From Candidatus Cryptobacteroides sp. (GTDB taxonomy: Bacteria > Bacteroidota > Bacteroidia > Bacteroidales > UBA932): DNA of 64,000 nucleotides. Positions within the stretch are counted from its first letter, which is position 1. Each line of letters starts with the position of its first letter. The DNA is taken from positions 10,313-74,312 of the forward strand of contig JAZRGY010000083.1 of assembly GCA_045644485.1 (NCBI GenBank), written 5' to 3'. Position numbers and translations under genes: made by a program. This document shows positions 14,970-40,912 of the stretch, in pieces. The notes beneath the pieces are model-generated. The model did not search any database. It saw nothing but the letters and a program-made list of their open reading frames with translations, and was not told where the DNA came from.

Positions 14970-15015
14970 AAGATTTCTCGTCATTTCGAGCACCCGAAGG
15001 GTGTCGAGAAATCTT
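14970..15015. repeat. CGTC-tagged REP-like palindrome
   Basis: CGTCATTTCGAGCACCCGAAGGGTGTCGAGAAATCT, plus an outer AAGATTTCTCG/CGAGAAATCTT stem. Abuts the stop of the upstream GH13 gene. Confidence 0.7.
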
Positions 15016-18247: not shown

Positions 18248-18305
18248 AGATCCACGATCAGGTCGGGGATGACTGCTCCGTCATTGCCGGCTTGACCGGC
18301 AATCT
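18248..18305. repeat. inverted doublet of REP-like palindromes (REPIN-like)
   Basis: AGATCCACGATCAGGTCGGGGATGAC-N6-GTCATTGCCGGCTTGACCGGCAATCT. The right end overlaps the pulA TAG stop. Confidence 0.75.
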
Positions 18306-20256: not shown

Positions 20257-20334
20257 AACTTTATTATAAATTTCTTAAATGCTTACAAATCTGACGAATA
20301 TACTGTATTTTCTCTTATATATTATAATATAAAA

Positions 20335-20379
20335 GATGAACGGACGTCTGAACATGACGAACGGTCGGATTTTCAGGAC
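20335..20379 (-). promoter_or_regulatory. tandem LytTR-type operator upstream of the pulA operon
   Basis: Minus strand CCGTTCGTC-N12-CCGTTCATC (20356-20364, 20335-20343), plus a flanking GGATTTTCAGGA shared with the site at 38708. Confidence 0.75.
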
Positions 20380-20483
20380 AAATATTATACTATTCAGATT
20401 TATCCTGCCGCCTGAATCCGGTTTGGTCCGAGGATTGTCTGCGGAGCCTGTTAGTAATTTGGAATAATTATAAACAGATTCAT

Positions 20484-23400
20484 ATGGACAGGATAAAGTA
20501 TATTTTAACATTGCTCGTGCTGATCTGCATGAGCGGTGCCTTTATTTCTTCTCAAGCGCAGAAGGTTCGTCAGATCAAGATCAGCAACAGTCTGTATGAA
20601 GGGTATGAGATACATGGCACCATCGTCGATGCCCTCGGACCGGTTGCAGGGGCGGCAGTAGTGGAAGCAGGTACTTCCAACGGCACCTCCACAGACCTTG
20701 ACGGACATTTCTCACTACTGGTCTCCAGTCCCCTTGCAGAAGTGGAGATAAGTTGCATAGGATATGCTGGTCAGACATTCCAGGCGGGATCCATGCCTCG
20801 GCTCATCACCCTCAGGGAAGACACGGAATTTCTTGATGAGATTGTGGTCATAGGTTACGGAACGGCGAAGAAGGACGACCTTACAGGTTCGATATCGGCA
20901 ATCAAGGCGGAAGACCTCAACAGAGGTGCAGTGGTGAACACACAGGACTTGCTCAAAGGTAAGGTGGCCGGCCTGCTCGTAACTCCCGGAGACGGCGGGC
21001 CCGGTTCAGGATCACGCATACGCATCAGAGGCGCTGCTTCATTGAATGCTTCAAACGATCCTCTGATTGTGATTGATGGAGTTCCTATCGCCCAGGGTGC
21101 CGGAGGTGCGATGTCAAATCCTCTGGACCTTCTCAATCCTAATGATATAGAGTCATTCACCATCGTCAAGGATGCTTCTTCCGCTGCAATCTATGGTTCC
21201 AGAGCCTCCAACGGAGTGATCATCATCACGACAAAAAAGGGCTTCGGAGGCAAACCTAAGGTAAGTTATACCGGCTCTTACAGTCTCCAGCACGCTTCAA
21301 AGAAGGTTCCTGTAATGTCACCGGAGGAATTGACCGACTTCTACTCCAAGACTTTCCCTGAAGGTACCCTTACAGGTGACCGTATAAAGGAACTCTCAGG
21401 AGGTGCGCGGACAGACTGGCAGGACCTTGTATTCCGTACCGCGTTTGCTACCGACCATAATGTCAGCGTACGCGGAAACATGAAGGACAGGATGCCGTAT
21501 CGAGGCTCAGTAGCGTACACCGGCCAGCAAGGAACCTTGAAAAAGTCCAGATACTATAGAGGCACAGTGGACCTGAACGCATCGCCGAACTTTCTTGACA
21601 AGCATCTCACTCTGGACATCAATGCAAAGGGAGTATATACATATTCTGATTATACTGACGGAGGTACCGTAGGCAAGGCAGCCTTCTTCAACCCCACAGC
21701 AGATCCCTACTGGCGAAATGACGACGGTTCCATCGACTATACGACCACAAACGGATACTGGAACTACGGAAACGGCAGAGGAAACGACTTCAGTCCCAAC
21801 ACCCTTGCCGGTCCGAGTCCCCTGTCCATGCTTTATGACAAGATAAGCGACGCAAGGTCATACCGATTCATAGGACGCATGGCAGCAGACTATAAGGTCC
21901 ATGGTCTCGAAGCCCTCCGTTTCAATATAAGTGCAGGCCTGGATATAACACAGACCGACTCGTATAGCGGTGTCCGCCCAGGTTCTTTCCAGGCATATAC
22001 GGACACGGAGAATCTGGGCATAGGCCAGCATACCAGGGGCATCAGCATCAGCAGAAGTCAGGTGTTTGAAGCATATGCGTCCTACAATGAGACATGGGGC
22101 AAGCACAACCTTGACATCATGGCCGGATATTCATGGCAGAACAACTGGGCCGGCAGCAGGTATGTGGACTATTTCAATGTGACAAATGAGGTCAAACTCC
22201 TGCCGGGACAGACTGCCGGATCAAGATATACATGGTCCAAGAGCGAGAACTACCTGGTGTCGTTCTACGGCAGAATAAATTACTCCATAGACTCAAGATA
22301 TGTGTTTACCTTCACAGCCCGAGGCGACGGTTCCAGCAAGTTTGCCAAGGCTTACAGATGGGGATTCTTTCCTTCCGGAGCCTTTGCATGGAATGTGAAG
22401 AAAGAGCCCTTCCTTGCCGACGTGGCCGATGTATCTGCATTGAAACTCCGACTTTCCGCAGGACTTACCGGACAGCAGGACGGAATCGGTGATTATGTGC
22501 ACCTGCCTCTATATAACATATATAGCGACACATACCACAAATACGACATGGGTGACGGCACATACATGGCGATGCTCTATCCGCAGGCATATGATCCCAC
22601 TATAAGGTGGGAGACGACGATGACTTGGAATTTCGGAGTGGATTTCGGATTCTTCCATGACCGCCTCAGCGGAAGTATCGACGCATATATCCGAGACACG
22701 AAAGATCTCCTGAATTCCGTACAGATACCGATGGGTTCTAACTTCGGAAACAGGCTCATGACCAATGTCGGTTCGATCCGTAACAAGGGTCTGGAGTTCA
22801 CAATCAGCGGAGTAGCGGTACAGACACCCGACTGGAGCGTCCAGATCGGAATCAACGGCACATTCCAAAACACGGTATTCACTAAACTGAATCCTACCGA
22901 AGACCTGAACTATTATGTCGAGACAGGTACTATCTCAAAAGGAACCGGAGGTTATCTCTGCCGGCAGATGGTAGGTTATGCCCCATATACCTATTTCCTC
23001 TACAAGCAGAAATATGACCCTGCAGGAAAACCTTTGCAGAACGAATTCGAGGATCTGGACGGAGACGGAACCATCACCGAAGGTGACAGATACATGACAG
23101 GAAAAAGCGCTGCCCCGAAATTCTATTTCGGAATGAATCTGAAAGTGACATACAAAGACTGGGATTTCGGCCTCAACGGTCACGGTTCGGCAGGGACATG
23201 GGTGTTCAACGACTTTGCCTCATCCAATTCGACAGCCTCTCTGGACCTTAATTCCGGAGCACTCCCCAATCAGGCGAAGTTAGTAAAGAATACCGGCTTT
23301 ACTGCGCCAAACAGCGGACAGCAGTGGTATTCTGACTATTTCCTTGAAAACGCATCCTTCTTCCGTCTTGACGACATTAATTTCGGATACACATTCAGAG

Positions 23401-23570
23401 GTGTCGGACACACGGAAACAGACATACGTCTGGGCTTTGCAGTGCAGAATGTATTCGTCCTGACAAGATATGGCGGAATGGACCCTGAGACCGTATCGGA
23501 AAACGGTATCGACAACACAATGTGGCCTCGACCACGGACATATTCTCTTCGTATAAATGTAAACTTCTAA
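20484..23570 (+). CDS. susC: SusC/RagA TonB-dependent transporter (second copy, inverted relative to the PUL)
   Basis: LDEIVVIGYG, DIESFTIVKDASSAAIYGSRASNGVIIITTKKG plug motif and C-terminal PRPRTYSLRINVNF. Confidence 0.95.
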   Translation: MDRIKYILTLLVLICMSGAFISSQAQKVRQIKISNSLYEGYEIHGTIVDALGPVAGAAVVEAGTSNGTSTDLDGHFSLLVSSPLAEVEISCIGYAGQTFQAGSMPRLITLREDTEFLDEIVVIGYGTAKKDDLTGSISAIKAEDLNRGAVVNTQDLLKGKVAGLLVTPGDGGPGSGSRIRIRGAASLNASNDPLIVIDGVPIAQGAGGAMSNPLDLLNPNDIESFTIVKDASSAAIYGSRASNGVIIITTKKGFGGKPKVSYTGSYSLQHASKKVPVMSPEELTDFYSKTFPEGTLTGDRIKELSGGARTDWQDLVFRTAFATDHNVSVRGNMKDRMPYRGSVAYTGQQGTLKKSRYYRGTVDLNASPNFLDKHLTLDINAKGVYTYSDYTDGGTVGKAAFFNPTADPYWRNDDGSIDYTTTNGYWNYGNGRGNDFSPNTLAGPSPLSMLYDKISDARSYRFIGRMAADYKVHGLEALRFNISAGLDITQTDSYSGVRPGSFQAYTDTENLGIGQHTRGISISRSQVFEAYASYNETWGKHNLDIMAGYSWQNNWAGSRYVDYFNVTNEVKLLPGQTAGSRYTWSKSENYLVSFYGRINYSIDSRYVFTFTARGDGSSKFAKAYRWGFFPSGAFAWNVKKEPFLADVADVSALKLRLSAGLTGQQDGIGDYVHLPLYNIYSDTYHKYDMGDGTYMAMLYPQAYDPTIRWETTMTWNFGVDFGFFHDRLSGSIDAYIRDTKDLLNSVQIPMGSNFGNRLMTNVGSIRNKGLEFTISGVAVQTPDWSVQIGINGTFQNTVFTKLNPTEDLNYYVETGTISKGTGGYLCRQMVGYAPYTYFLYKQKYDPAGKPLQNEFEDLDGDGTITEGDRYMTGKSAAPKFYFGMNLKVTYKDWDFGLNGHGSAGTWVFNDFASSNSTASLDLNSGALPNQAKLVKNTGFTAPNSGQQWYSDYFLENASFFRLDDINFGYTFRGVGHTETDIRLGFAVQNVFVLTRYGGMDPETVSENGIDNTMWPRPRTYSLRINVNF

Positions 23571-23574
23571 AAAT

Positions 23575-25203
23575 ATGAAACGAACAATATACATTATGTC
23601 TGCCGTCATCGGACTGTCCTCCTGTGTCGGCGACCTTGATACCCTTCCGCTGAACAATACGGAGCCTATTTCGGAATATGTCTACGGAAACTCCGAACAG
23701 GCTTATCTGGAAGGATTGACGCGTCTGTATTTCCAGTTCGTGACCAACGACCTCACCGATCTGCAGCAGATGGACGGAGGTGCGTCTGAACTCATCCGAG
23801 CATTCTGGTCAGTGCAGGAGACCACAACCGATGCCGCCAAATGTTCATGGGAAAACGATGCATGGGTCCGTGCGCTGAACACGAACACATGGAACGCGAC
23901 TCAGAACGACGCCGTCTATGCCGTCTATGTACGTACCCTTCAGGGTATAGCGCTTGCCAATGAGTATCTGCGTCAGACTTCTCCTTCCCGTCTTGCCGCA
24001 AGAGGCGTATCTTCCGATCTTGCCGTCAAGATAGACGGCTTCAGGGCTGAAGCAAGGTTCGTCAGGGCGTACCTTTACTGGATGGCATTGGACTGTTTCG
24101 GAAGCGTTCCTTTCACTACGGAGAACTCGCCTTTCGGCGGTACGTATTTCCCCTCACAGGTCTCACGTAAGGACATATTCGACTTCTGCATAAGTGAGTT
24201 GGAATACTTGCGTTCGGAAGAAAGTCCGATGCCTTCGGCCCGAGCCCTCTACCCTCGTGCAGACAAGGGTTCAGTCTCAGGACTTCTTGCACGTATGTAT
24301 CTGAATTCCAAGGCTTATACAGGACAGGAAAGATGGGTGGAGACAAAGAGTGTATGCGAAGACATATTCTCGATGGGCTATGCGCTTTGTCCTGACTATG
24401 CTTCCCTCTTCCGCGGAGACAACGGAGAGAACCCACATGCTCGTTCTGAAATGCTTTGGGCAGTTGCATACAACGCTGAAAAGACCCAGTCATACGGAGG
24501 AACATCCTACATTCTGAGTGCATCTCTGGCTGCTACGGACATAACAGACGAGTCGCGTCCGAACGGACAACGCAACGGATGGGCTGGTCTGCGCGTTCCG
24601 TATGAATATGTATCGAGATATTTCAACGTTTCGAATCAAGACTACTCGAGCGGTTCGTATGAAGTCTCGGACGCCCGTGGAAAACTCTTCTATATCAAGG
24701 GCAGGTCCGAGTCCATGGATGGTGCCTTGTACTCATTCATGAACGGATGGTCCTGTCTGAAATTCAACAATATCCCGTCCGGTCAGACCGACCAGTCCTT
24801 CCTGCCGGTCTCTGCGGTCAAGGCGTTTGCGGACATTGACTTTCCGATGATACGTCTGGCGGAGATCTATCTGATCTATGCGGAAGCCTGCATGAATCTA
24901 GGAAGCGCCCAGACAGCATTGCCTATGTTAGCCTTGCTGTCTGAGCGCGCCGGTGTCGCACCTCCTTCTGAGATTACGACAGATTTCCTGGTAGCGGAAA
25001 GGGCTCGCGAACTCATGTGGGAAGCCCATCGCCGTACCGACCTCATCAGACTCGGATTGTATGACTCAGGGGCTTATCTCTGGCCATACAAGGGAGGTGA
25101 TTCCTTCGCAGGCCAGGCCTTTCCTTCCTACAAAAGAATCTTCCCGATCCCACCTACCGAACTTGCCACCAATGACCTCCTCGTGCAGAATCCCGGATAC
25201 TAG
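23575..25203 (+). CDS. susD: SusD starch-binding-type lipoprotein (second copy)
   Basis: LSSC lipobox, AEARFVRA, RLAEIYL, ERARELMWE, RRTDLIR and QNPGY end; QSYG and GWAGLR as in starch-binding SusD. Confidence 0.93.
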   Translation: MKRTIYIMSAVIGLSSCVGDLDTLPLNNTEPISEYVYGNSEQAYLEGLTRLYFQFVTNDLTDLQQMDGGASELIRAFWSVQETTTDAAKCSWENDAWVRALNTNTWNATQNDAVYAVYVRTLQGIALANEYLRQTSPSRLAARGVSSDLAVKIDGFRAEARFVRAYLYWMALDCFGSVPFTTENSPFGGTYFPSQVSRKDIFDFCISELEYLRSEESPMPSARALYPRADKGSVSGLLARMYLNSKAYTGQERWVETKSVCEDIFSMGYALCPDYASLFRGDNGENPHARSEMLWAVAYNAEKTQSYGGTSYILSASLAATDITDESRPNGQRNGWAGLRVPYEYVSRYFNVSNQDYSSGSYEVSDARGKLFYIKGRSESMDGALYSFMNGWSCLKFNNIPSGQTDQSFLPVSAVKAFADIDFPMIRLAEIYLIYAEACMNLGSAQTALPMLALLSERAGVAPPSEITTDFLVAERARELMWEAHRRTDLIRLGLYDSGAYLWPYKGGDSFAGQAFPSYKRIFPIPPTELATNDLLVQNPGY

Positions 25204-25216
25204 ACTATAAGTCCGG

Positions 25217-27616
25217 TTACTTTCTGCCGCTTGCAGCGATCATGCCGGTGAGGGTTTCGTTGAACTCTCTGGCTGCAGCAAGTTTCTCGACAGTGAGATG
25301 CATGCGGTAACGCCAGTAGTGACGTGAATTCGCCGGCACGTTGATTCTCTCTTCGTTAGGATTCTGACGACGGAGAGCAGGGTCCATCGAGAGCCAGTCC
25401 TGAAGAGGAAGCACTGTCAACATGGCAGGAGACCAAAGGTGCTGGTCAAGAATCTGACGACAGATCCATGGCTCGCAGTAGTAAGGTGCGTCGCCCTGTC
25501 CTCCGAGCATCTCATGATAGAACTGTTCGGTAACCTGACGGTCTTCCTCCCACCACGCACGGATAGGGTTCATATCGTGGGTCGAAGTAGTACATACCGA
25601 AAGATATGGATACCATGCAGGATTAGCGAAATTATCATGGATAGACTTCGGCATACGTTGTATCTCAAGAGAAAGAATCCTGAGGTCAGACATCACCTGA
25701 GGCACAGTAGCGGGAATCATTCCAAGGTCCTCTCCGCAGGCAAGCATTCCTGTAGAGTCTAGAAGCGCCGGCAGTTTCATCATGGCCTTGTCCTTCCAGA
25801 ACTCATTGTTGCGACGATAGAAGAAGTCATCATAAAGTCTGTCGAATGCACCGCGACGATACGCATCGAGACAACGGTATGAATGTGTGTCGCGTGCACC
25901 GATCTTAGGATGATAATATCCTTCCTGACGCGGATCCTGAAGGAAGAGGTCAAAATCATTCACATCGAATCCCTGGCTCTGGAGTTCATGGGCAGGGAAA
26001 GGAAGCGCAGGGTTGAAGTAGCCGTTCAGACCGCTCTTTGTCCACATAGGGATCTCCCAGATACGGAAGAATCCAAGGATATGGTCGATACGGAAGGCAT
26101 CGAAATACTCAGACATCTTGGCAAGACGCGACTTCCACCAAGCGAAGCCGTCCTCCGCCATCTTCTCCCAGTTGTATGTAGGGAAGCCCCAGTTCTGACC
26201 GTCTGCAGAGAATGCATCAGGTGGTGCACCAGCCTGCGAATCCATATGGAAGAGTTCAGGATAAAGCCATGCATCCACGCTTGTACGGCTGATACCGATC
26301 GGAAGGTCACCCTTGAAGATGACACCCTTTGAGTGGGCATAAGCGCATACCTCCGACAACTGAAGGTCGAGGTGATACTGTACGAAACACCAGAAATCTA
26401 TATCTGCACGATTCTCCTCGCAGAATGCAGCGACCTTCTTCCTGCTGTATTTTGCAAATCCCTTCCACTGAGTGAAGTCAGGAGTTCCGTTCTGGTCGCG
26501 GAGGACGCAGAAGGCTGCATAAGGGATAAGCCATGAAGAGTTCTTCTGAACGAAGTTCTGATATTTCTCTGTCGCTGACAGTTTCTTGAAGGTTTTCCTG
26601 AATGCCTCACGGAGAAGTTCCCTCTTGAGGTTGTTCACCCTCTCGTAGTCGATCTGCTCGAGGGAGTTGAGTTCCGCCTGAAGAGCCTTGTACTCCTCAT
26701 CCACCTTCACTCCCACAGCGGGAAGATGCAGGAACTGCGGATGAAGGGCAAATGTCGAGTTCGGATTATATGGGTATGAGTCCTCCCATGTATGAAGCAT
26801 GGTTGTATCATTGATAGGAAGCAACTGGAGGATGCTCTGTCCGGTAGAAGCGGCCCAGTCCACCATCTTCTTGAGGTCATAGAATTCTCCCACACCAAAA
26901 TCGTCCTCAGTACGGAGAGAGAACACTGGAATGGCAGTACCTGCTCCCTTCCAGTCACGTCCGCAGAAACGCACCTGAGCGTCTGCCTCTACGGTCATCT
27001 CACCCTTTTCAGGAACATTGAGGAACCATCTGTTGTCTCCGTCTTCCCATGCCACCGGCTCGAGAGTCTTCCTGTCTGCGACAAGAATCTTGTATGAGAA
27101 CGGTTCAGCAACTTCGAGTGCAAGAGTCCATACAGGAAAACGGGCATCATCGAAAGGGACCACCTTTGTCCAGTCCTTCAATGCCTTTCCGCTACCTGCA
27201 AGTGCAAGCACTTCATTCGGACGAAGAGACGGAGCAGAAACCTGGATAACGACATTTGCATCCTTGGCAGATGCTGCCTTCGCCGCCTTTCTGCCGAAGA
27301 TGGCATCAGTGAATGCCGATGAGTAGAACGGAGAATCTGCCGGACGGTCATTCCACCTGTCATAAATATTGACCACCTTGGCCTTAGTATCTTCAGGAAG
27401 AGAAAGGACATGCTTCTTCCACTCAGTGCGCACAGTCACCCCGTCACGCACGACTTCATATGTGTACTCGGAAGACTTCGCAGGGTTGAAGCGCGCAACC
27501 TCCCCCTGCCATATACCCTCGGCAACATATGCCATAGGATAGCGTTTTCCGCCAAGACAGAGGACAATCTCTTCGCCCCAACTGGTCCTGTATTCTATGC
27601 TTAAATTAAGTTTCAT
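25217..27616 (-). CDS. malQ: 4-alpha-glucanotransferase (GH77 with N-terminal CBM20-like domains)
   Basis: GTAIPVFSLR, QLLPINDT, KGDLPIG, GAPPD, RIDHILGFFRIW, CGEDLG and THD. Confidence 0.95.
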   Translation of the reverse strand: MKLNLSIEYRTSWGEEIVLCLGGKRYPMAYVAEGIWQGEVARFNPAKSSEYTYEVVRDGVTVRTEWKKHVLSLPEDTKAKVVNIYDRWNDRPADSPFYSSAFTDAIFGRKAAKAASAKDANVVIQVSAPSLRPNEVLALAGSGKALKDWTKVVPFDDARFPVWTLALEVAEPFSYKILVADRKTLEPVAWEDGDNRWFLNVPEKGEMTVEADAQVRFCGRDWKGAGTAIPVFSLRTEDDFGVGEFYDLKKMVDWAASTGQSILQLLPINDTTMLHTWEDSYPYNPNSTFALHPQFLHLPAVGVKVDEEYKALQAELNSLEQIDYERVNNLKRELLREAFRKTFKKLSATEKYQNFVQKNSSWLIPYAAFCVLRDQNGTPDFTQWKGFAKYSRKKVAAFCEENRADIDFWCFVQYHLDLQLSEVCAYAHSKGVIFKGDLPIGISRTSVDAWLYPELFHMDSQAGAPPDAFSADGQNWGFPTYNWEKMAEDGFAWWKSRLAKMSEYFDAFRIDHILGFFRIWEIPMWTKSGLNGYFNPALPFPAHELQSQGFDVNDFDLFLQDPRQEGYYHPKIGARDTHSYRCLDAYRRGAFDRLYDDFFYRRNNEFWKDKAMMKLPALLDSTGMLACGEDLGMIPATVPQVMSDLRILSLEIQRMPKSIHDNFANPAWYPYLSVCTTSTHDMNPIRAWWEEDRQVTEQFYHEMLGGQGDAPYYCEPWICRQILDQHLWSPAMLTVLPLQDWLSMDPALRRQNPNEERINVPANSRHYWRYRMHLTVEKLAAAREFNETLTGMIAASGRK

Positions 27617-27638
27617 ATCGTGTTGTTTATTTCTTTTG

Positions 27639-27646
27639 CAAATATA
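27639..27646 (-). promoter_or_regulatory. internal -7 element (TATATTTG) for malQ
   Basis: Exact TAnnTTTG 22 nt upstream of the malQ ATG. Confidence 0.6.
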
Positions 27647-27653
27647 GCGGATT

Positions 27654-30188: not shown

Positions 30189-30208
30189 ACTGTTTCTGAA
30201 AATTGGCA

Positions 30209-30236
30209 GACAGAAGGCCGGTCAGGGCCTTCTGTC
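30209..30236 (-). terminator. intra-operon hairpin (attenuator or mRNA stabiliser)
   Basis: GACAGAAGGCC-N6-GGCCTTCTGTC 11-bp stem after the susF-like stop; weak U-tail. Confidence 0.55.
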
Positions 30237-30243
30237 CGAAATA

Positions 30244-31377: not shown

Positions 31378-31396
31378 AATGTCAATTCTTTAATGA

Positions 31397-32614
31397 TTAC
31401 TTGATCTCACCTTTTCCCTTAGTGAAGTTGAGATAGAGTTTCTCACCCTTGGCTCCGCTTACACGATCCTGGTCTCCATTTGTACCACGGTACTCGATCT
31501 TGCCGCCGAATATCATGAACTCGGTCTTCCACCAGTCATATCCAGGAATACTTACGCATGCACGCACACCTGGATCACCGTTTACATCTGCCGCAAATGC
31601 TGGAGAAACAAACTCACCCTCTGCATCAGCAGGAACGGTAAACAGATTTTCAGGAACAGTCTTCCAGTCTGTCTGTCCTACGATTGCACCGATAAGGTAA
31701 ACCTCCGGCTTGTTGATCTGGAACTTATAGATGATGTCACGTCCTTCAACTGTGAGTTCTGCAACAACAAGGTACCAACCTGCTTTTGTAACAGCCATGT
31801 TGCCGCCGTCTTCCTTAAGACCGGCACCTGCATTGTCCACATATGTGTAAAGCGGATCATCGTTTACATATCCGACCTCGCCGCCGTCCCATGCCTTGTT
31901 GCTGTTCACCTTGAATCCTCCTTCCGGAAGGTAGATAAGTCTCCAGAAAGCACCTGTCTTACCCTTACCGTCAGTAGCATTGCCATTTACAGGAATGAAA
32001 TCAAATGCTGAGTCCCAGTCCCATTTGTTATACTCACCTACGATAAAGAACTCCTTCGGTACGAAAACTTCAGGGAGTTGGTATGGACAACGGATGCTTG
32101 CGATCGAAACCGGATTGGATACGATCTCACCCTTTTTGCTGGCAGTCAGAGACGCAACCACACGGATAGTTGCAGAAGTCTCATATGGGAACTTAGCCTT
32201 CATCTGATCCTCAGTGATGTCCTTGTCTTCCGCTACGAGATCTACCATCTTGAGTTGTGTAAGAGCAATTGCAATCTCCGAAGCAGGAACATTGATTCTT
32301 GCAGAAGAGAATTCAGTATCTAAGGTCACATAGTCTCCTGTAACCTGCTTTTCGTTGAACTCCTGTGTGAAATTACCGTCCTTAGATACCTGTACCTTAT
32401 ATGTAGTTGCGGCAGTAAAGCCGTAATCAGGCTGAGATACAGCGATTTCAATCGACTCTGAACTTGCAAGGTCGATGAAATTGTTCTTGAGAACCGGTTC
32501 GTTCAGAACGAACTTTGTCGGCTCCTGGAACACCGGTGTCGCATCCTGATCCTCACAAGCAGAGAATGCAAGGGCACCGATAAGTAAAGATGCTATAATG
32601 TAAAATCTTTTCAT
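31397..32614 (-). CDS. susE: SusE-like starch-binding outer-membrane lipoprotein
   Basis: FSAC lipobox, SQPDYG SusE N-domain and C-terminal DWWKTEF motif. Confidence 0.82.
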   Translation of the reverse strand: MKRFYIIASLLIGALAFSACEDQDATPVFQEPTKFVLNEPVLKNNFIDLASSESIEIAVSQPDYGFTAATTYKVQVSKDGNFTQEFNEKQVTGDYVTLDTEFSSARINVPASEIAIALTQLKMVDLVAEDKDITEDQMKAKFPYETSATIRVVASLTASKKGEIVSNPVSIASIRCPYQLPEVFVPKEFFIVGEYNKWDWDSAFDFIPVNGNATDGKGKTGAFWRLIYLPEGGFKVNSNKAWDGGEVGYVNDDPLYTYVDNAGAGLKEDGGNMAVTKAGWYLVVAELTVEGRDIIYKFQINKPEVYLIGAIVGQTDWKTVPENLFTVPADAEGEFVSPAFAADVNGDPGVRACVSIPGYDWWKTEFMIFGGKIEYRGTNGDQDRVSGAKGEKLYLNFTKGKGEIK

Positions 32615-32632
32615 CTTGAATAATCTTAACTA

Positions 32633-34240
32633 TTAATAACCCTTGTTCTGAACGAGGTTAGAGTTTGCGTTCTTGTCATTTTCCGGAATAGGGAAAAGGT
32701 TCAGATGATCGCTTACAGCCTTACCAGCCTTGGCACCACCTTTCCACTGCCAGAGATAATCAGCAGTAGTGAACTTACCGAAGCGGATAAGGTCTGAACG
32801 ACGCCATCCCTCAAGAGCAAGTTCGCGGGCACGCTCGTCAAGAACATTATCAAGAGTGTATTCTGACACTGCAGAAAGGCCTGCACGTTGACGGACTGCA
32901 TTGTATGCAGCAAGGCCGTCCACACCCTCAGCACCACGTACAGCACACTCCGCCTTCATAAGAAGGGCATCGGCATAACGGAATACAGGGAAGTCTGTGT
33001 TCACGAAACCAGGGTTGGTATAGGTAACCTCTCCTGTCTTCTCATCCTTATTCGCTGTCTGGTTAGGAATCTTACCCTCGCTTGTCACGTTCTTGAACTT
33101 GAGGAATGCATAACCATTGGAGAATGTTCCGATGTCATCTATCTCCGCCTGATGATCCTTGGTATAGAATATCTTACGAGCATCGTTATCAGAGAACTTC
33201 TTGTAGAAGTCAGGCGTTGTACGAAGACCACCCCATCCGGAAGAGATACCCACTTCGTCAGTGTTCATCTTACCTCCTGTACAAGCGAAGATGAGATAGT
33301 TTGTCACACCGTAACTCTGTACATTTACACCATCCTGCTCAACAGCCCAGATGATTTCCTCGGTACACTTATGGTTGTCAGCAAGGAAGAGGTCCTGGAA
33401 TGCAGAGAACTTTGCTCCGTTTGGAGTTGTATGGAGACTGTATGCGGCATCAACAACCTTGAGAGCCTCTACACACTCGTCATACTTCTTCGCACCGATA
33501 TAAACCTCAGCATTGAGATAGAGTTTTGCAAGAATCATTGCAGCGACACCCTTGTTCATACGGCCGTACTCACCCTGACCTGCTGCTGTAAACTTGGCAT
33601 CAGCAAGAAGTTCCTTAAGTTCGGTCTCGATATATGTAAAGAGATCCGCACGTGAAATCTGCTTAGGAAGATATGTACCTATAGGAGAAGTCTCGTCAGC
33701 AAACGGCACGTTTCCGTAGTTGTCAAGAGCCTCAAGCCAGCAGAATGCACGGATAGTACGAGCCTCTGCTCTCCAGAGATCTGCATCAGGAAGTTCGATC
33801 GTAGCGGTGTTCAACTTGCGGAGGAACTCGTTGACTGCAGATATCTGATAGAATATACGATAGTAGAATGCTGCCACGAACACGTCTGTAGTAGTCCATG
33901 CAAGACCATGGAGGTCCTGGAGAGTCTGGTCATTCCATCCGCAGATTGCCTCGTCTGTTGTAAGACCGTTGAGGTGGTAGCGACCACGGAAGTACTGGCT
34001 GAAACCACCGTCGATTCCGGAAATGTTGTTGTTTCCATTAGGACCATATGATCCTGAATGTGAGAAACCTGCATAGCACTGTGCGAGGAGTTCGAAATAG
34101 TCCTCTGAAGTCTTGAGTGCTGCATTTGCAGTATTCAAAGATGGGTCGATAGGAGTAACGTTGAGGTCTCCCACACAAGCATTGAGACCAAGCGCTACAA
34201 CTACAGCACCGATAATATATTTCAATGTTTTCATATTCAC
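32633..34240 (-). CDS. susD: SusD starch-binding lipoprotein
   Basis: LNAC lipobox, IDGGFSQY, AEARTIRA, QSYG, GWGGLR, ERARELALEG and QNKGY. Confidence 0.94.
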   Translation of the reverse strand: MNMKTLKYIIGAVVVALGLNACVGDLNVTPIDPSLNTANAALKTSEDYFELLAQCYAGFSHSGSYGPNGNNNISGIDGGFSQYFRGRYHLNGLTTDEAICGWNDQTLQDLHGLAWTTTDVFVAAFYYRIFYQISAVNEFLRKLNTATIELPDADLWRAEARTIRAFCWLEALDNYGNVPFADETSPIGTYLPKQISRADLFTYIETELKELLADAKFTAAGQGEYGRMNKGVAAMILAKLYLNAEVYIGAKKYDECVEALKVVDAAYSLHTTPNGAKFSAFQDLFLADNHKCTEEIIWAVEQDGVNVQSYGVTNYLIFACTGGKMNTDEVGISSGWGGLRTTPDFYKKFSDNDARKIFYTKDHQAEIDDIGTFSNGYAFLKFKNVTSEGKIPNQTANKDEKTGEVTYTNPGFVNTDFPVFRYADALLMKAECAVRGAEGVDGLAAYNAVRQRAGLSAVSEYTLDNVLDERARELALEGWRRSDLIRFGKFTTADYLWQWKGGAKAGKAVSDHLNLFPIPENDKNANSNLVQNKGY

Positions 34241-34251
34241 TTTCCCTGTTG

Positions 34252-37248
34252 TTAGAAGTTAAGTTTCAGACCAAGTACGTATGTTCTTGGACGTGGGTAA
34301 AGATTGTTGTCAATACCGCCATAAACCTCTGGGTCGAGACCGTCATACTTAGTGAATGTGCATACATTCTGTACGGTAGCGAAGATGTTGAGGCCCATTG
34401 CACGGTCAAGTTTGGCAGACTTGAAGATCTGTGGGAATGTATATCCAAGAGTGATGTTGTCAATCTTGAAGAATGAAGCATCCCTTACATAGTAGTCTGA
34501 AGTATACTGCGCTTTCTTGAAAAGTGAGAATGCGGCAGAACTGAGGCGGTTGCTGTTGAAACTGTTTGTCCAGCAGTCAGCGATCATTTCACCGTCAGAA
34601 GCAACGTTGTTGTAAACCCAGTTACCGATGCTTCCGTGTCCTGATGCAGCGAGAGTCCAGTTCTTGTATGTGAGTGTAGTATTCACACCAAGTGTAACAT
34701 CTGCAGCAGGCTTGTGGTAGAAGTAACGGTCGTCAGCAGTGATCTTACCATCACCGTCGCGGTCTACATACTCGCCTTCGATAGGATGGCCTGACTTGTC
34801 ATATACCTGCTCCCACACATAGAACGCACTTACAGGGAAACCGACCTGATGCATCTGGATAGTGTTACCCACACCACCTGAAATACCACCTGTCGCAACA
34901 CCAGTCTTGTCGTTTGGAGATGCTGTCAGTTTAGTGAACTTGGTAGCATTGTATGCTACGTTTCCCCCGAGTGACCATGTCCAGTTGCTTCTGTCGATCA
35001 CCATTGCATTGAACTCATACTCGATACCCTTGCTCTCGAGGTTACCGATATTTACGTTGAGGTAGTTTGTAAGGTTACCGAGAGCCGCTACAGGGATGTA
35101 GTTGATAAGGTCAGAAACCTCTCTATGGTAAGCGTCCACAGCCATTGTGATACGGTCGTTGAGGAAACCGAAATCGAGACCGATGTTTGCTGTTGTAGTA
35201 GTCTCCCATCTGAGGTCGGTATTATATCCGATTGCTGTGATAGGCTTTACAAGAGTACCGCCGAAGAAATAATAACTTCCGAGGTCATTGTTGTAGAATG
35301 TAGGCTGAGACTCATAACGTCCCACAACATCCTGGTTACCTGTCTGTCCCCATGAGAGACGGAGTTTCAATGTTGTAAGAGTCTCGTTACCCTTGAGGAA
35401 GCCTTCGTTGGCGATGTTCCAACCGAGAGCAACCGATGGGAAGAGGCCCCACTTGTTGTCGATGAATTTTGAAGAACCGTCACGACGGATAGTCGCTGTG
35501 ATCATATAACGGTTGTCATATGAATAGTTTACACGACCGAAGAATGAAACGAGATACAACTCTGACTTAGGAGTCTTATACTCTGCGAGAACCTTTCCGT
35601 CGCTGAGTTTGTTAGAGAAGTTTGAAGACTCGTTGTAGAAGTGCTGCCAAGAATAACCTGCCATTGCATCGATATGGTTCTTTCCGAAATCCTTTGCATA
35701 TGCAAGGTAAGCCTCGAGGGTGGTGTCCATACGCTTGTATGTGTATTCGCTATGGTATCCAGAACCTGACTGCTGAGTGTCATGAACAGACTGCTCTGCA
35801 CCTACAGGAACCTCTGCATATCCGCCAGATGAAGCGAAGTCCATACCGAGGTTGAGGTTGAATCTAAGGTCCTCGAAACCATGGAACTTGTAATCGAACT
35901 GTGCATTACCGATGAAACGGTTTGCCTTAGACTCGTCTTTCTTGTCATAAAGAAGGGCAACAGGGTTCATTGTAGCCATTGTGTTGACCTTTCCTGCCTC
36001 ATCACGCCATACAGTATAACCATTGAGACCCTTCTCAGATGCGTCGTATACAGGAAGAGTAGGGTTCATGCGGTTTGCCGCTCCGATCGCTCCCTGGTTT
36101 GCAAAACGGCTTGCAGAGAATACACCCTTACCGTTAAGGTTGAGAGTAAGGTGATTGTCAAAGAACGATGGTGAGAGATTTACCGAATAAGTCGCACGGT
36201 CCATGTGGTCTGTCTTGAGGACACCGTCCTGTGAAAGGAAGCCGGCAGAAACACGCCAAGGAAGAATACCTGCGTTGCCGAGGTTCACACGGCCGGCGAG
36301 GCTAAGGTTACCCTCGTATGCAGGAGCGATCTGATAGATCTCCTTCTGCCAGTCTGTGTCAGCAGTACCCATGGCATTCATAGCCTCAGCCTTGATATTT
36401 CCTGCATCCACCTGTGACTGTACGAAAGCCTTGTATTCAGAAGCGTTCATCACGTCAACATAGTTCGCCACCTGAGAAACAGAAGTCTGGAAGTTGAAGT
36501 TGATCTGAGGAACGCCGCTCATTGTCTTTGCACCCTTCTTGGTTGTGATCACGATGACACCGTTAGATGCACGTGAACCATAGATCGCTGTTGCAGAAGC
36601 ATCCTTGAGTACTGAGAATGACTCGATATCGTTAGGGTTGATAGACGAAAGCACGTCACCCATACCGCTGATACCGTCGTTGCTTACAGGAAGACCGTCA
36701 ACGATGATGAGAGGGTCTGAACTGATCATTGAAGACTCACCACGGATACGGATCTTTGCACCAGCACCTGGCTGACCGCTGCCCGGAGTCACAACAACAC
36801 CCGCAGACTTACCTTTGAGGAGGTCTGTAGGAGAAGAAATCATACCCTTGTTGATCTCGTCAGCCTTCACTGTGCCGACCGATCCTGTCATGTCACCCTT
36901 CTTTACTGTACCGTAACCGATGACAACGACCTCGTCAAGGAACTCTGTATCCTCGCCAAGAGTAACTGTTGCAGGCACCTGAGATGCCACGAAAGTCTGT
37001 GATGCATAACCGATGCAACTGATCTCTACAATTGCGTCAGCGCTGGAAACTGTAAGGACGTAGTCGCCGTCAAGACCGGATGAAGTACCGTTTGTGGTAC
37101 CCTGCTCGATGATTGTAGCACCGATTACCGGACCGATTGCGTCAACAACTACTCCTTTCACCTCGTATCCGCTCTGAGCGAATACATTTGCCCCTCCCAA
37201 CAGGAGTGTTGCGACAAGGGCAACGCATAGCGTCTTGATCTTATTCAT
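34252..37248 (-). CDS. susC: SusC TonB-dependent maltooligosaccharide transporter
   Basis: LDEVVVIGYG, KDASATAIYGSRASNGVIVITTKKG and YPRPRTYVLGLKLNF. Confidence 0.96.
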   Translation of the reverse strand: MNKIKTLCVALVATLLLGGANVFAQSGYEVKGVVVDAIGPVIGATIIEQGTTNGTSSGLDGDYVLTVSSADAIVEISCIGYASQTFVASQVPATVTLGEDTEFLDEVVVIGYGTVKKGDMTGSVGTVKADEINKGMISSPTDLLKGKSAGVVVTPGSGQPGAGAKIRIRGESSMISSDPLIIVDGLPVSNDGISGMGDVLSSINPNDIESFSVLKDASATAIYGSRASNGVIVITTKKGAKTMSGVPQINFNFQTSVSQVANYVDVMNASEYKAFVQSQVDAGNIKAEAMNAMGTADTDWQKEIYQIAPAYEGNLSLAGRVNLGNAGILPWRVSAGFLSQDGVLKTDHMDRATYSVNLSPSFFDNHLTLNLNGKGVFSASRFANQGAIGAANRMNPTLPVYDASEKGLNGYTVWRDEAGKVNTMATMNPVALLYDKKDESKANRFIGNAQFDYKFHGFEDLRFNLNLGMDFASSGGYAEVPVGAEQSVHDTQQSGSGYHSEYTYKRMDTTLEAYLAYAKDFGKNHIDAMAGYSWQHFYNESSNFSNKLSDGKVLAEYKTPKSELYLVSFFGRVNYSYDNRYMITATIRRDGSSKFIDNKWGLFPSVALGWNIANEGFLKGNETLTTLKLRLSWGQTGNQDVVGRYESQPTFYNNDLGSYYFFGGTLVKPITAIGYNTDLRWETTTTANIGLDFGFLNDRITMAVDAYHREVSDLINYIPVAALGNLTNYLNVNIGNLESKGIEYEFNAMVIDRSNWTWSLGGNVAYNATKFTKLTASPNDKTGVATGGISGGVGNTIQMHQVGFPVSAFYVWEQVYDKSGHPIEGEYVDRDGDGKITADDRYFYHKPAADVTLGVNTTLTYKNWTLAASGHGSIGNWVYNNVASDGEMIADCWTNSFNSNRLSSAAFSLFKKAQYTSDYYVRDASFFKIDNITLGYTFPQIFKSAKLDRAMGLNIFATVQNVCTFTKYDGLDPEVYGGIDNNLYPRPRTYVLGLKLNF

Positions 37249-37317
37249 AAGAACTTTTTTTGGTTAGTAGATTGTTTATTGTTGAACTATTATAATATTC
37301 AGTATGCTGAATCTGAT

Positions 37318-38622
37318 TTATTTCTCCTTCACGAAACGCACAGCAAGAGCACCAAGCACCAGGAGTACTCCCGCTACGAGGAACATGCTTACCTGCGCAC
37401 CTCCGACAAGTTTGAGGACAAATCCTCCGCATGCAGCGGCAGCGATCTGCGGAAGGCAGATGGTTCCGTTGAACAGACCGAGGTATGTTCCTATATGTTC
37501 GCCAGAAAGCGAGTTGGTAAGGAGGGTGAAAGGAACCGCCAGCATTGCCGCCCAAGCCACACCTATAAGAAGGAATGAGATAAAGAGGAGATACTGGTCA
37601 TGGATGAAGAACACGGATGCGAAGCCGACGGCACCGATAAGGAGGCTGACAACGTATGCGGTCTTGATGTTTCTGAACTTAGGGATCACAAGAGCCCAGA
37701 GAACAGAACCGATAGCCTGCACGGCGAAGAGGATACCCACCCAGTTTCCGGCAGTCTGATAGCCTTCTGAAGCAACGTCAGTCGTTCCCCATACGGTATC
37801 AGCGATGGCACCGTTAGTATATGTCCACATGTAGAGGAACGCAGCCCAGCAGAAGAACTGTACAAGACCTACTGTCCAGAATGTGTTTGGAGCCTGCTTG
37901 AGAAGAGTGAACATTCCAGGGCCCTTGTCACCTTCGGTCTTCTTCGAAAGGTCGATTCCATGGAAGTCCGCATACTCCTTCGGCGGCATCTCCTTCACCT
38001 TGAATGTTGTGAAGAGAACACAGAGGATGAGGATTGCAGAACCGATGTAGAATGCATATTTCACAGTATCAGGAACCTGTCCTTCCGGCGCGGTATTGGC
38101 GATTCCAAGCCATGCGAAGATGAACGGGAACACATATCCCACAAGGCTTCCGGCGTTGCAGAGGAAACTCTGGATCGAATAAGCCTGAGCCTTCTGGTTC
38201 TCTCCCACCATATCTCCCACAAGCATCTTGAACGGCTGCATCGCCACGTTGATCGAGGTATCAAGAAGCATCAGGGACACAAGACCGAAGATCATTGCAC
38301 CTCCGACAGCAAGGCCGAAGTTTCCTGCATTAGGAAGCATGCACATCACGAGGATGGCGATGATCGATCCGAGAAAAAGATAAGGAATACGACGTCCCAG
38401 ACGGGTCCATGTCCTGTCGCTGTATTTTCCTACAAGAGGCTGAACGATCAGTCCCATGAGCGGAGGAAGTATCCAGAAGAAACTCAGGTCATGAGGGTCA
38501 GCACCCAGTGTGGCAAAAATACGGCTGATGTTGGCGTTCTGAAGGGAGTATGCAATCTGGACTCCGAAGAATCCGAAACTGATGTTCCACATCTGCCAGA
38601 ATGTAAGTTTCGTTTTTTGCAT
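37318..38622 (-). CDS. MFS maltose/maltooligosaccharide transporter (SLC45/MalT-like)
   Basis: FWQMWNISFGFFGVQ, SDRTWTRLGRRIPY, VQFFCW and YLGLFNGTICLPQI; head of the starch PUL. Confidence 0.88.
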   Translation of the reverse strand: MQKTKLTFWQMWNISFGFFGVQIAYSLQNANISRIFATLGADPHDLSFFWILPPLMGLIVQPLVGKYSDRTWTRLGRRIPYLFLGSIIAILVMCMLPNAGNFGLAVGGAMIFGLVSLMLLDTSINVAMQPFKMLVGDMVGENQKAQAYSIQSFLCNAGSLVGYVFPFIFAWLGIANTAPEGQVPDTVKYAFYIGSAILILCVLFTTFKVKEMPPKEYADFHGIDLSKKTEGDKGPGMFTLLKQAPNTFWTVGLVQFFCWAAFLYMWTYTNGAIADTVWGTTDVASEGYQTAGNWVGILFAVQAIGSVLWALVIPKFRNIKTAYVVSLLIGAVGFASVFFIHDQYLLFISFLLIGVAWAAMLAVPFTLLTNSLSGEHIGTYLGLFNGTICLPQIAAAACGGFVLKLVGGAQVSMFLVAGVLLVLGALAVRFVKEK

Positions 38623-38707
38623 TTTTTACGTGTTTTGGTTATTGTTTATCACGATTTTACAAGTCCACGAAAATAAAAATAAACTTCTATACCATTATTA
38701 TGCAAAA

Positions 38708-38751
38708 GACGAACTGTCCGAAGAAGGGGATGAACGGTTGGATTTTCAAGA
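38708..38751 (-). promoter_or_regulatory. tandem LytTR-type operator upstream of the MFS-susC-susD-susE-susF-amylase operon
   Basis: Minus strand CCGTTCATC-N12-CAGTTCGTC (38729-38737, 38708-38716), plus GGATTTTCAAGA. Confidence 0.75.
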
Positions 38752-38797
38752 TGAAATCACTAACTTCGTTCCGGTTTTTCTATTGAATATTCAAGAA

Positions 38798-40144
38798 ATG
38801 AAATCTTTAGGACTGTCCTGGATCATACACATTTTCGCCCTGCTCCATGCTGGAGTAGCATTGGGGTGCCGTCTTGCCGGCATTGATGACCAGTTGTTCC
38901 TGACCATACTTACAATGGCCCTGGCCCTGATAATCTGTCTGAAGAAAGGGTTGAAGATAGAGTTTACAGCCATCATCATCATCGTAGTGAACATTCTCGG
39001 CTTCCTTTTGGGAACCTTCGGAGCAAATGTCCTTCAATCATTCATACATTCTGAGTATGCTGTACATCCGCTCTCCACATTGGTGACTACAGAAATCCTG
39101 GGATGGTGCATCGTTGCGATGACGAATATATTCGGAAACAAGGAAGATAACATCAGTTTCCGAAAATCACCTTACATGAAGTGGCTTCTGCTTATAGCCG
39201 CCGGCATCTTCGCCTTGAGGCTTCTCATTGTCCTGGGTTTTTCAAAAACTCCGATCGGGCATGACCTGGTCTTCGAAGTGGTCAGAAAGGTCATGACGAA
39301 CATGTTTTCCCTCGTCATTCTCATCTGTGTCAACATCCTGTTTGTCAGGTCCTTAGCCACAAGAAAACAGAATACATCAATATTCAGTACTGTAATCATC
39401 TATATAATCTTCATGGTTATGGCTGCTCTTCTCGAAACATTCCTTGTCGGATTGGGAGAAGAGAGTTTCCAACTTCTTTTCATTGTCTCTGTCATAGTGC
39501 AGATCACAGTCTACTGCATCATCCATATTATAAACTATGCCATCACCACCCGCATCGAGATGCAGAACGAAAGGGAAAAGGCAAACATGGCTCAGTACAG
39601 ATACCTCAAACTCAAGAGACAGGTAAACCCCCACTTCCTTTTCAATTCCCTGAACATCCTCGACTGTCTGATCTGCGAAGAGAAGTCCGAACAGGCAAGC
39701 GTCTATACCCATAAACTCGCTGGCATATACAGATACATGCTCAAGAGCGAAGACGAGGAAGTCGTCCCTCTCAGAGACGAGATGGTATTTGTCAGACTGT
39801 ACATAGACCTCCTGAAAGTACGCTTCCCCGAAGGATTCGATGTGGTCATCGATGTTCCGGAAGACAGACTGGCCCATTTTGTGCCTCCATGTTCGATCCA
39901 ACTGCTCATCGAGAATGCAACCAAGCACAATGCAGTGAGTGCAGACAATCCGCTTACTGTCAAAGTGGAGGCATCCGGAGACCAGATCAGTGTATGCAAC
40001 AACATAGTGCCTAAGGTGACTAAAAGCACATCGACCGGATTAGGACAACAGTACATCAGACAACTGTACATGGACCTGTCCGGAAAACAGATAGAAATAA
40101 AGCAAAGTGAGACATCTTATTGTGTAACCTTACCATTGTTATAA
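38798..40144 (+). CDS. LytS/YehU-family membrane sensor histidine kinase
   Basis: About 8 transmembrane segments, then LKRQVNPHFLFNSLN H-box, LIENATKHN and STGLG. Start moved to MKSLG (38798), because the track start overlaps the MFS gene. Confidence 0.9.
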   Translation: MKSLGLSWIIHIFALLHAGVALGCRLAGIDDQLFLTILTMALALIICLKKGLKIEFTAIIIIVVNILGFLLGTFGANVLQSFIHSEYAVHPLSTLVTTEILGWCIVAMTNIFGNKEDNISFRKSPYMKWLLLIAAGIFALRLLIVLGFSKTPIGHDLVFEVVRKVMTNMFSLVILICVNILFVRSLATRKQNTSIFSTVIIYIIFMVMAALLETFLVGLGEESFQLLFIVSVIVQITVYCIIHIINYAITTRIEMQNEREKANMAQYRYLKLKRQVNPHFLFNSLNILDCLICEEKSEQASVYTHKLAGIYRYMLKSEDEEVVPLRDEMVFVRLYIDLLKVRFPEGFDVVIDVPEDRLAHFVPPCSIQLLIENATKHNAVSADNPLTVKVEASGDQISVCNNIVPKVTKSTSTGLGQQYIRQLYMDLSGKQIEIKQSETSYCVTLPLL

Positions 40145-40147
40145 CTT

Positions 40148-40912
40148 ATGGCTATGAAAGTACTGATAGTGGAAGACGAGATGATGGCACAGAAAAGCCT
40201 CATCAGGACCCTCGCCCAGAACTTCCCGGACATGGAAATCGAAGGAACCACCGGCTCGGTCAGGAACACGGTGGAATGGTTGAAGACCCCGGGGAACCAT
40301 GCCGATATCATATTCATGGACGTGGAACTGTCAGACGGAGAATGTTTCGAGATTTTCCGCCAATGCGATGTCAAGGCAAAGGTGATAATGACCACAGCAT
40401 ACGACAGTTATGCAATAAAGGCCTTCGAAGCAGGAAGTATAGATTATCTTCTCAAGCCAATAGATCTGTCTGCCCTCAAAAGGGCCGTCGCGCGCTGCCG
40501 GATGAGCGGAGGCGGCATCGATGTAGAATCTCTCCTGAAGGCTATCGGAGGCAGCAATGATTCCAAGAAGACATACAAGGAGAGGTATATCATAAGATTC
40601 AATGACAGGATTGTCCCTGTCATGACGGAGGATATCGCCTACATATATTCTGAAGAAAAGACCAATTATCTGGTCACCTTCGGTGGAGACAGATACATCC
40701 TTGACTCATCTCTGGACGTCATGATGGACGAACTTGATCCGGAAAAATTCTTCAGGATATCACGAGGATGCATCATCTCGATGAAGGCCATAACCAGCAT
40801 CATAAAGCAGGCTGGAAGCCGTCTTAAGATAGAATCTGATCCGGAGGCTCCTTTCGAGATGACGGTAAGCCGATCCAGGGTCGATGATTTTCTTGAGTGG
40901 ATCGAAAGATAG
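40148..40912 (+). CDS. LytTR-family response regulator
   Basis: IVEDE, FMDVEL, TTAYD and DYLLKP receiver domain; FFRISRGCII and VSRSR LytTR domain. Confidence 0.94.
   Translation: MAMKVLIVEDEMMAQKSLIRTLAQNFPDMEIEGTTGSVRNTVEWLKTPGNHADIIFMDVELSDGECFEIFRQCDVKAKVIMTTAYDSYAIKAFEAGSIDYLLKPIDLSALKRAVARCRMSGGGIDVESLLKAIGGSNDSKKTYKERYIIRFNDRIVPVMTEDIAYIYSEEKTNYLVTFGGDRYILDSSLDVMMDELDPEKFFRISRGCIISMKAITSIIKQAGSRLKIESDPEAPFEMTVSRSRVDDFLEWIER

Follow-up and report, generated by a model that had tools for sequence, protein, structure and literature searches.

A candidate kinase/LytTR switch for a two-operon alpha-glucan regulon in Candidatus Cryptobacteroides

In a 64,000-nucleotide stretch of contig JAZRGY010000083.1 (the window), from a metagenome-assembled genome of Candidatus Cryptobacteroides sp. 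(1.97 Mb, 81% complete), an alpha-glucan utilisation regulon spans 12.7-40.9 kb and ends in a gene pair encoding a sensor histidine kinase (38798-40144) and a response regulator that joins a receiver (REC) to a LytTR DNA-binding domain (40148-40912). We propose, with a probability of roughly 80%, that this pair is the dedicated switch of the regulon, which would comprise two operons, one headed by the pullulanase gene pulA and the other by the gene of an inner-membrane sugar transporter of the MFS type. Phased 9-bp direct repeats of LytTR type lie in front of both operons, the distance from repeat to -7 box is fixed, and among relatives the repeats are inherited together with the LytTR domain. 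An earlier reading of the window (the original prediction) had named a two-component system as dedicated regulator of a two-operon starch regulon, and comparative genomics now argues for that assignment. The nearest relatives of the source genome come from the gut of sheep, goats, buffalo and humans, and are recorded as Candidatus Cryptobacteroides or uncultured Bacteroidales.

Phased repeats at two divergent promoters

The candidate operators occupy two intergenic regions, one between pulA and the divergent susC2 gene and one between the MFS gene and the divergent kinase gene. Direct reading of the sequence found both of the motifs originally reported, at the positions given for them, together with the features that follow.

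20295..20302, minus strand: -7 box TATATTCG of the pulA promoter, 32 nt after the proximal half-site (same spacing in the pulA promoter of locus L065)
20335..20343, minus strand: proximal half-site CCGTTCATC (pulA), by pattern and weight matrix
20356..20364, minus strand: middle half-site CCGTTCGTC (pulA), identical to the AlgR 9-mer, by pattern match
20377..20385, minus strand: distal half-site ATATTTGTC (pulA), degenerate, by sequence; distal and middle pair scores 22.4 in the weight matrix
38668..38675, minus strand: -7 box TATTTTCG of the MFS promoter, 32 nt after the proximal half-site
38708..38716, minus strand: proximal half-site CAGTTCGTC (MFS), by pattern and weight matrix
38729..38737, minus strand: middle half-site CCGTTCATC (MFS), by pattern and weight matrix
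38750..38758, minus strand: distal half-site GATTTCATC (MFS), 40 nt before the kinase start codon, by sequence and weight matrix
38798..40144, plus strand: sensor histidine kinase (PF06580), with about 8 transmembrane helices, His279 (HFLFN), N and G boxes
40148..40912, plus strand: response regulator with receiver (D58, T83, K103) and LytTR DNA-binding domain, by Pfam

In both regions the repeats recur at an exact 21-bp period, with the consensus CMRTTCRTC on the pulA/MFS strand, and the 9-nt repeats with 12-nt spacer that had been described as LytTR-like are present at both promoters. LytTR regulators bind two 9-11-nt repeats, 11-13 nt apart (PMC4847170); repeats of that size and spacing stand near the promoter in both cases and are kept in relatives. 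The proposed match to the Pseudomonas AlgR site also holds, the middle pulA half-site CCGTTCGTC being identical to the 9-mer core of that site (PMC4787818). Size, spacing and this identity together make the operator a textbook LytTR one. Two half-sites had been recognised in each region and both are real, but a third, lying 21 bp further out, had been overlooked; the flank TYGGATTTTCARGA is indeed shared by both sites, as reported, but it is really spacer plus the beginning of this third half-site.

The repeats are rare elsewhere. Allowing up to two mismatches, GAYGAACKG-N12-GAYGAACGG occurs in the window only at 20335-20364 and 38708-38737, exactly in both instances (0.01 matches expected in shuffles), and the 1.97-Mb assembly as a whole contains no further exact match; the 23-nt extended flank matches nowhere else in the window. 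A weight matrix was built from the sites of relatives, the window's own sites forming part of the training set, and its top genome-wide scores (30.8, 28.5 and 26.4, against a shuffle maximum of 16) fall at the two promoters. The genome scan that had been suggested as a check thus leaves, above the noise, both promoters and one further operator-like site, CCATTCGTA-N12-CCATTCGTC, which scores 26.2 independently of training and is taken up in the last section.

The phasing extends to the promoters. Among 56 related MFS promoters, the -7 box (TAnnTT[C/T]G) begins 32-33 nt past the proximal repeat in 40 and 43 nt past it, approximately one helical turn more, in 11, these two distances accounting for 51 of the 56. 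Octamers situated 8-9 nt further downstream were considered as alternative -7 boxes and are unsupported by the comparison of related promoters. Neither window promoter has a visible -33 TTTG. On the assumption that the -7 box extends from about -12 to -5, the centres of the half-sites fall near -49, -70 and -91. Repeats positioned upstream of -33, in fixed phase, at promoters with no -33 TTTG argue for an activator-dependent geometry, and on sequence the arrangement of repeats and -7 box is the layout of an activator-dependent promoter. We infer that the regulator binds these repeats and that it activates rather than represses.

Conservation in relatives and co-inheritance with the LytTR domain

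Since both intergenic regions are divergent, the direction of control had to come from relatives. Regulator orthologs were fetched from 61 genomes of the same family, with 20 of those loci extended to about 15 kb, and a further 80 species-level loci were drawn from the GTDB species collection, giving about 100 related species overall (in what follows, G, C and L numbers denote genomes, contigs and loci). The kinase/LytTR pair adjoins the alpha-glucan MFS-susC-susD genes, often together with GH77, GH13 or pulA, in 18 of the 20 family loci and in 77 of the 80 species-level loci, so that the synteny with starch polysaccharide utilisation loci (PULs) for which the original prediction had proposed a test is borne out. 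It is maintained through three gene orders: divergent; co-directional, as kinase>regulator>MFS; and convergent kinase and regulator, with the regulator divergent from the MFS gene. In every one of these, a pair or triple of nnnTTCRTC with 12-nt spacer lies upstream of the MFS gene on its own strand, which settles the direction: the MFS operon is the one served by the site, however the regulator genes are oriented. At locus L139 (RUG528 scaffold_236), two tandem kinase/LytTR pairs are found beside GH77 and a susC gene, possibly a recent duplication of the system.

Exact TTCRTC-N15-TTCRTC is found on the MFS strand in 56 of 66 divergent loci, and the exact triple in 42 of 66. Within the 1.29 Mb of DNA fetched, only 6 other exact matches occur. 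Two are directly upstream of pulA, at loci where pulA has moved behind susC2/susD2; one, a triple, precedes the gene of a BACON-like lipoprotein similar to the N-terminal part of the SusG-like amylase; and the remaining three are within the coding sequence of unrelated transporters. Positions outside the search pattern are conserved as well, yielding a consensus C-[C/A]-[G/A]-T-T-C-[G/A]-T-C in which the C at position 1 of the repeats is present in 55/56 and 56/56 sites. The half-sites, an A-rich patch of the spacer and the -7 box are conserved in relatives, and the remainder has diverged.

Loss of the regulator provides a complementary view. Four family genomes (G008, G043, G051 and G014) have an MFS ortholog and no regulator ortholog: a regulator search returned nothing in the first three, and in G014 only a non-adjacent paralogue of 35% identity. 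The repeats are absent upstream of the MFS gene in all four, and they are likewise absent at two paralogous regulators having no starch genes nearby. A motif kept where the LytTR pair is missing, which had been named as grounds for abandoning the prediction, was therefore searched for among these genomes and not found. In G043 (L175) and G014 (L177), LacI-type inverted TTTCAATCGTTTGC / GCAAACGATTGAAA boxes flank divergent MFS/GH77 promoters, and the G014 cluster holds a LacI-family gene (L177 16181-17197); to judge from these loci, this is a regulator swap to the LacI type within the family.

The converse situation is presented by a fused form, in which the operator persists with the LytTR domain as sole recognisable part of the regulator. 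At the G022 locus (L179 9995-10747, plus strand) a 250-aa protein with no kinase core and no receiver resembles at its N-terminus residues 8-125 of the kinase, corresponding to the first four transmembrane helices (31% identity, E 6e-19), and at its C-terminus residues 139-254 of the regulator, the LytTR domain (49% identity, E 4e-36). Proteins of this length and architecture, in which PF04397 is the sole domain, form at least 80 clusters (43-94% identity); invariant in their transmembrane part are a His, two Cys, an Arg, an Asp and an LTLL patch. Wherever a metagenome contig has the fused gene in full length (16 of 16; L222-L237), this gene is divergent from MFS-susC-susD and an exact repeat pair separates the two. 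Inspection of the G022 locus by hand reveals a third half-site of TCCRTC type following the pair, with a -7-like box 32 nt after it, and similar third half-sites are visible in most fused loci. Retention of the repeats in loci devoid of kinase core and receiver ties the operator to the LytTR domain. The fused form occurs in only 1 of 121 sampled family genomes. A tentative explanation, to which we give slightly short of an even chance, is that the first four transmembrane helices of the kinase are a signal receiver able to gate the LytTR domain directly, and that in one sublineage an in-frame deletion of kinase core and receiver left a membrane-tethered one-component regulator. If true, this would represent a natural conversion from a two-component to a one-component system at a PUL, and would define a new membrane sensor module for starch products or transporter state.

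Beyond the family, the regulator protein was used as query against one genome from each of about 150 Bacteroidales families. One further family (f2; G208 and G061, regulator identity 45-46%) has the same system, in the order kinase>regulator>(CATTTCATC-N12-CACTTCATC, -7 box at +32)>pulA>MFS>susC>susD>...>susG, and is alone in this among the order-wide regulator matches; matches of 35-42% identity belong to paralogous LytTR systems lacking starch genes within 1.5 kb, and were set aside. A search for the exact triple TTCRTC-N15-TTCRTC-N15-TTCRTC across 401 genomes of the order, a sample including only 4 genomes of the window's family, yielded starch or regulator homologs in 0 of 30 fetched loci. 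Nearly all of its matches are 21-bp coding tandem repeats or acidic Asp/Glu runs, so that the pattern is too unspecific at that range and was dropped as a test. In G168, of another Bacteroidales family, a paralogous kinase/LytTR pair is accompanied by similar GAGTTCATC/CACTTCATC repeats with a 12-nt spacer (L220 2979 and 4879, L221 930, all on the plus strand), which precede the kinase gene of that pair as well as the next downstream gene; the TTCATC core may thus be shared by a wider clade of LytTR regulators in Bacteroidales.

The two proteins, a proposed mechanism and its rivals

The receiver of the regulator matches PF00072 (E 3e-13) and, in structure, the receiver of LytR (6m8o, TM score 0.85); it has D58, T83 and K103, each conserved to at least 90% among 23 orthologs. 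The C-terminal LytTR domain matches PF04397 above its gathering score (E 4e-16). A sequence search of the PDB matched only receiver domains and a kinase core, and the LytTR fold was matched through the structure model: the AlphaFold prediction (pLDDT 89, all-beta from residue 146) has full-length ComE (4cbv) as top Foldseek match and superimposes on the LytTR domain 3d6w with a TM score of 0.87 and a root-mean-square deviation of 2.1. The best full-length NCBIfam matches, LytR and BtsR, are both below their cut-offs.

The kinase had been described as LytS-type, a label that proves correct for its transmitter and not for its sensor. PF06580 is matched over residues 270-345 (E 3e-22) with the conserved His279 in HFLFN; of a putative ATP-binding catalytic domain an N-box (IENATKHN) and a G-box (TGLGQ) are visible, with no Pfam match to HATPase_c; and residues 274-392 match the solved kinase 6swj (E 7.5e-11). 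The start codon is the ATG at 38798, a longer open reading frame from 38582 reflecting a wrong start. The N-terminus is an unclassified bundle of about 8 transmembrane helices, for which a look-up in a protein atlas returned a score of 0.83, below the useful range. The 5TM-LYT domain (PF07694) and GAF domain of LytS proper were found neither in Pfam up to E = 1 nor in NCBIfam, which places the kinase outside the LytS family proper and makes it LytS-like in the transmitter only.

A plausible sequence of events can be assembled from these elements. The multi-pass membrane sensor of the kinase would detect a starch-derived signal, most likely maltose or a maltooligosaccharide, or else the activity of the adjacent MFS transporter; the kinase would then phosphorylate the regulator at Asp58; and the regulator would bind two or three of the tandem CMRTTCRTC repeats (21-bp period) cooperatively and recruit RNA polymerase to weak promoters that have a near-consensus TAnnTTCG -7 box and no recognisable -33 TTTG. 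Both the MFS-headed and the pulA-headed operon would be driven in this way.

Several observations weigh against this reading. The sensor belongs to no known family, having neither 5TM-LYT nor GAF, so that the signal is a guess. The distal MFS half-site is only 40 nt from the kinase start codon, and the site may therefore also affect the kinase operon, in either direction. The pulA site sits in a control region shared with the divergent susC2/susD2 genes and may act on these too, and 10 of the 66 divergent loci have no exact repeat match by exact pattern search. In addition, the genome has five other LytTR genes and Bacteroidales paralogues (L220, L221) use similar TTCATC repeats, so that cross-talk or another cognate regulator is compatible with sequence alone.

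The second of these points can be turned into a distinct proposal: that a LytTR regulator on the repeats represses the starch operons, or its own operon only, with induction by release. We regard this as unlikely, even though the distal half-site is so close to the kinase start (40 nt) and to that of the fused-regulator gene (about 33 nt) that its occupancy could block the divergent promoter. With the -7 box placed as assumed, the MFS and pulA promoters have the repeats entirely upstream of their -33 region, at a fixed distance from that box or one turn more, and in the window they show no -33 TTTG; the layout also persists where the regulator genes are co-directional upstream, a situation in which the site cannot act on their promoter. 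Less probable still is that the repeats are bound by an unlinked factor, such as another LytTR protein or a global carbon regulator, while the neighbouring system controls something else. The further LytTR genes and the similar repeats of paralogous systems would accommodate this, but the repeats and the regulator clade are gained and lost together (four of four regulator-less genomes lack repeats, 16 of 16 fused loci have them), and their association survives three rearrangements and holds in a second family. Least credible of all is a recent duplication of a promoter segment devoid of specific operator function, as the alignability of the two window regions over about 95 nt (one indel, spacer and flank included) might imply, for only the half-sites, the A-rich patch and the -7 box are kept in relatives, indicating selection on a binding site instead of recent copying.

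The regulon, its known counterparts and a candidate small-RNA family

Other genes of the regulon in the window are as follows.

12736..14949, minus strand: GH97 alpha-glucosidase, SusB-like, end of the pulA operon (Pfam GH97 N, catalytic and C domains, E 1e-97)
15015..16946, minus strand: GH13 cyclomaltodextrinase/neopullulanase-like, SusA-like (Pfam Alpha-amylase, Cyc-maltodext_N, Cyc-maltodext_C)
17001..18224, minus strand: GH13 alpha-amylase (Pfam PF00128, E 7e-37)
18304..20256, minus strand: pullulanase pulA (CBM48, GH13 and pulA beta domain; Pfam), heading operon 1
20484..25203, plus strand: second SusC/SusD pair (20484-23570 and 23575-25203; Pfam), divergent from pulA
25217..27616, minus strand: GH77 4-alpha-glucanotransferase with CBM20, end of operon 2 (Pfam, E 4e-151)
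27654..30188, minus strand: SusG-like surface amylase (BACON and GH13; Pfam)
30244..31377, minus strand: 377-aa protein with no family match (0 Pfam matches), conserved beside susE/F in relatives
31397..32614, minus strand: SusE/SusF-like protein (Pfam PF16411, PF14292)
32633..34240, minus strand: SusD-like protein (Pfam)
34252..37248, minus strand: SusC-like TonB-dependent transporter (Pfam)
37318..38622, minus strand: MFS inner-membrane sugar transporter, GPH/sucrose-symporter-like, heading operon 2 (Pfam MFS_1/MFS_2, NCBIfam GPH_sucrose)

Adjacent susC and susD genes, cognate GH13, GH77, GH97 and pullulanase enzymes and a SusE/F-like protein mark the cluster as a Sus-like alpha-glucan PUL. 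Operon 1 is predicted to run pulA-GH13-GH13(SusA-like)-GH97(SusB-like), and operon 2 MFS-susC-susD-susE/F-unknown-susG-GH77; position suggests that the 377-aa protein is a surface glycan-binding protein. Pfam bears out the gene calls that had placed kinase and LytTR regulator beside this PUL and divergent from the MFS gene. The coordinates originally given for the regulon were right as to motifs and genes but fell short of the end of the pulA operon, which continues outside them to 12736. The second SusC/SusD pair is of a type that appears in relatives as the sole SusC/D behind the MFS gene (L042, L044) or directly after the regulator (L064).

Accounts of PUL control usually invoke SusR, hybrid two-component systems (HTCS), extracytoplasmic function (ECF) sigma/anti-sigma pairs and a few one-component repressors. 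None of the open reading frames of 12.7-47 kb encodes a SusR, HTCS or ECF/anti-sigma protein, and none of these, nor a LacI gene, was found on the contig at large, in agreement with what had been claimed for the PUL; the genome's copies of Y_Y_Y, GerE and LacI domains sit on other contigs. Two candidates among these were examined and rejected: a SusR-like 541-aa GerE-domain protein (contig C110) lies among phosphate genes (PhoU-like, PHO4-like, porin O/P), and the genome's only LacI gene (C81) has a Sugar_tr transporter as partner and is remote from any alpha-glucan gene.

SusR of Bacteroides thetaiotaomicron and the HTCS do the same job, that of a locus-linked regulator switching on a starch or glycan PUL. 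Both sense through periplasmic domains, whereas the pair described here has a LytTR DNA-binding domain and a sensor without a large periplasmic domain. LacI control of alpha-glucan loci is an alternative within the same family (G014, G043) and excludes the LytTR system in the genomes examined. In a search of open-access full-text literature no paper on LytTR control of a PUL was found, in accord with the earlier statement that this is not a canonical class of PUL regulator.

By analogy, the closest functional counterpart is the YpdA/YpdB-yhjX system of E. coli. Like it and BtsS/BtsR-btsT, the present system would couple a PF06580-type kinase to a REC and LytTR regulator in a nutrient-sensing pair with a transporter gene as direct target, and the direct repeat of GGCATTTCAT bound by YpdB at the promoter of the MFS gene yhjX (PMC4847170) is near the CATTTCRTC variants of the present operator. 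Unlike those systems, the proposed target here is a two-operon Sus-like regulon of 11 genes (13 with susC2/susD2) instead of one transporter; there are three phased half-sites, a sensor of about 8 transmembrane helices without 5TM-LYT or GAF, and Bacteroidota -7 promoters; and the signal is presumably an alpha-glucan product, not pyruvate. The AlgZ(FimS)/AlgR pair of P. aeruginosa shares the 9-mer CCGTTCGTC, which is both the middle pulA half-site and the family consensus here. The AlgR consensus is, however, a single 11-bp motif derived from 157 ChIP-seq loci (PMC4787818), as opposed to a 21-bp tandem array, and AlgR is a global regulator of virulence and alginate genes, from another phylum and with another sensor. 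AgrA, ComE and PlnC of Firmicutes likewise have two 9-bp direct repeats, spaced by 12 bp, ahead of the promoters that they activate, but these systems sense secreted peptides via HPK10 kinases and control quorum-sensing, competence and bacteriocin genes.

The system described here would add to the known types of PUL control a classical kinase with its LytTR regulator, whose phased operator can be read from the sequence and stands in a fixed geometry to the promoter. Many uncultured Bacteroidales of gut and rumen, namely Cryptobacteroides and its relatives, which abound in livestock, have kept it, so that the regulon of uncultured starch degraders should be predictable from sequence alone. For Bacteroidota genetics it would supply a small promoter/regulator pair responsive to starch or maltose, and loci of the two-component, fused one-component and LacI-replaced kinds form a natural series in which the swapping of regulators at a conserved catabolic locus can be studied.

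The one additional site above noise in the genome scan is located outside the window, at G000 contig C62:13142-13375 on the plus strand (L062 5143-5375). There CCATTCGTA-N12-CCATTCGTC stands 42 nt upstream of a perfect -7 box, TACCTTTG, which is followed by a predicted transcript of about 110-140 nt that has no open reading frame and closes with a GC hairpin and U-run; this transcript is possibly a small RNA responsive to starch. G459, the closest relative, retains the site in altered form (score 24.5). The small RNA itself (L062 5232-5375) belongs to a multi-copy family represented in 21 of 24 genomes of the genus, with 6 copies in G465; a second copy is found at G000:C123:11834-11945, and further loci are L184-L194. 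Most copies have an ordinary promoter without a LytTR-like site. Rfam gave only sub-threshold full-length matches for the candidate, to the Bacteroides small RNAs BTnc049 and BTnc231 (20 and 18 bits). Members of the family consist of a variable 5' stem-loop, which differs between species and, by eye, apparently stays paired, followed by about 50 nt of invariant core (96-98% identity between species) and the terminator.

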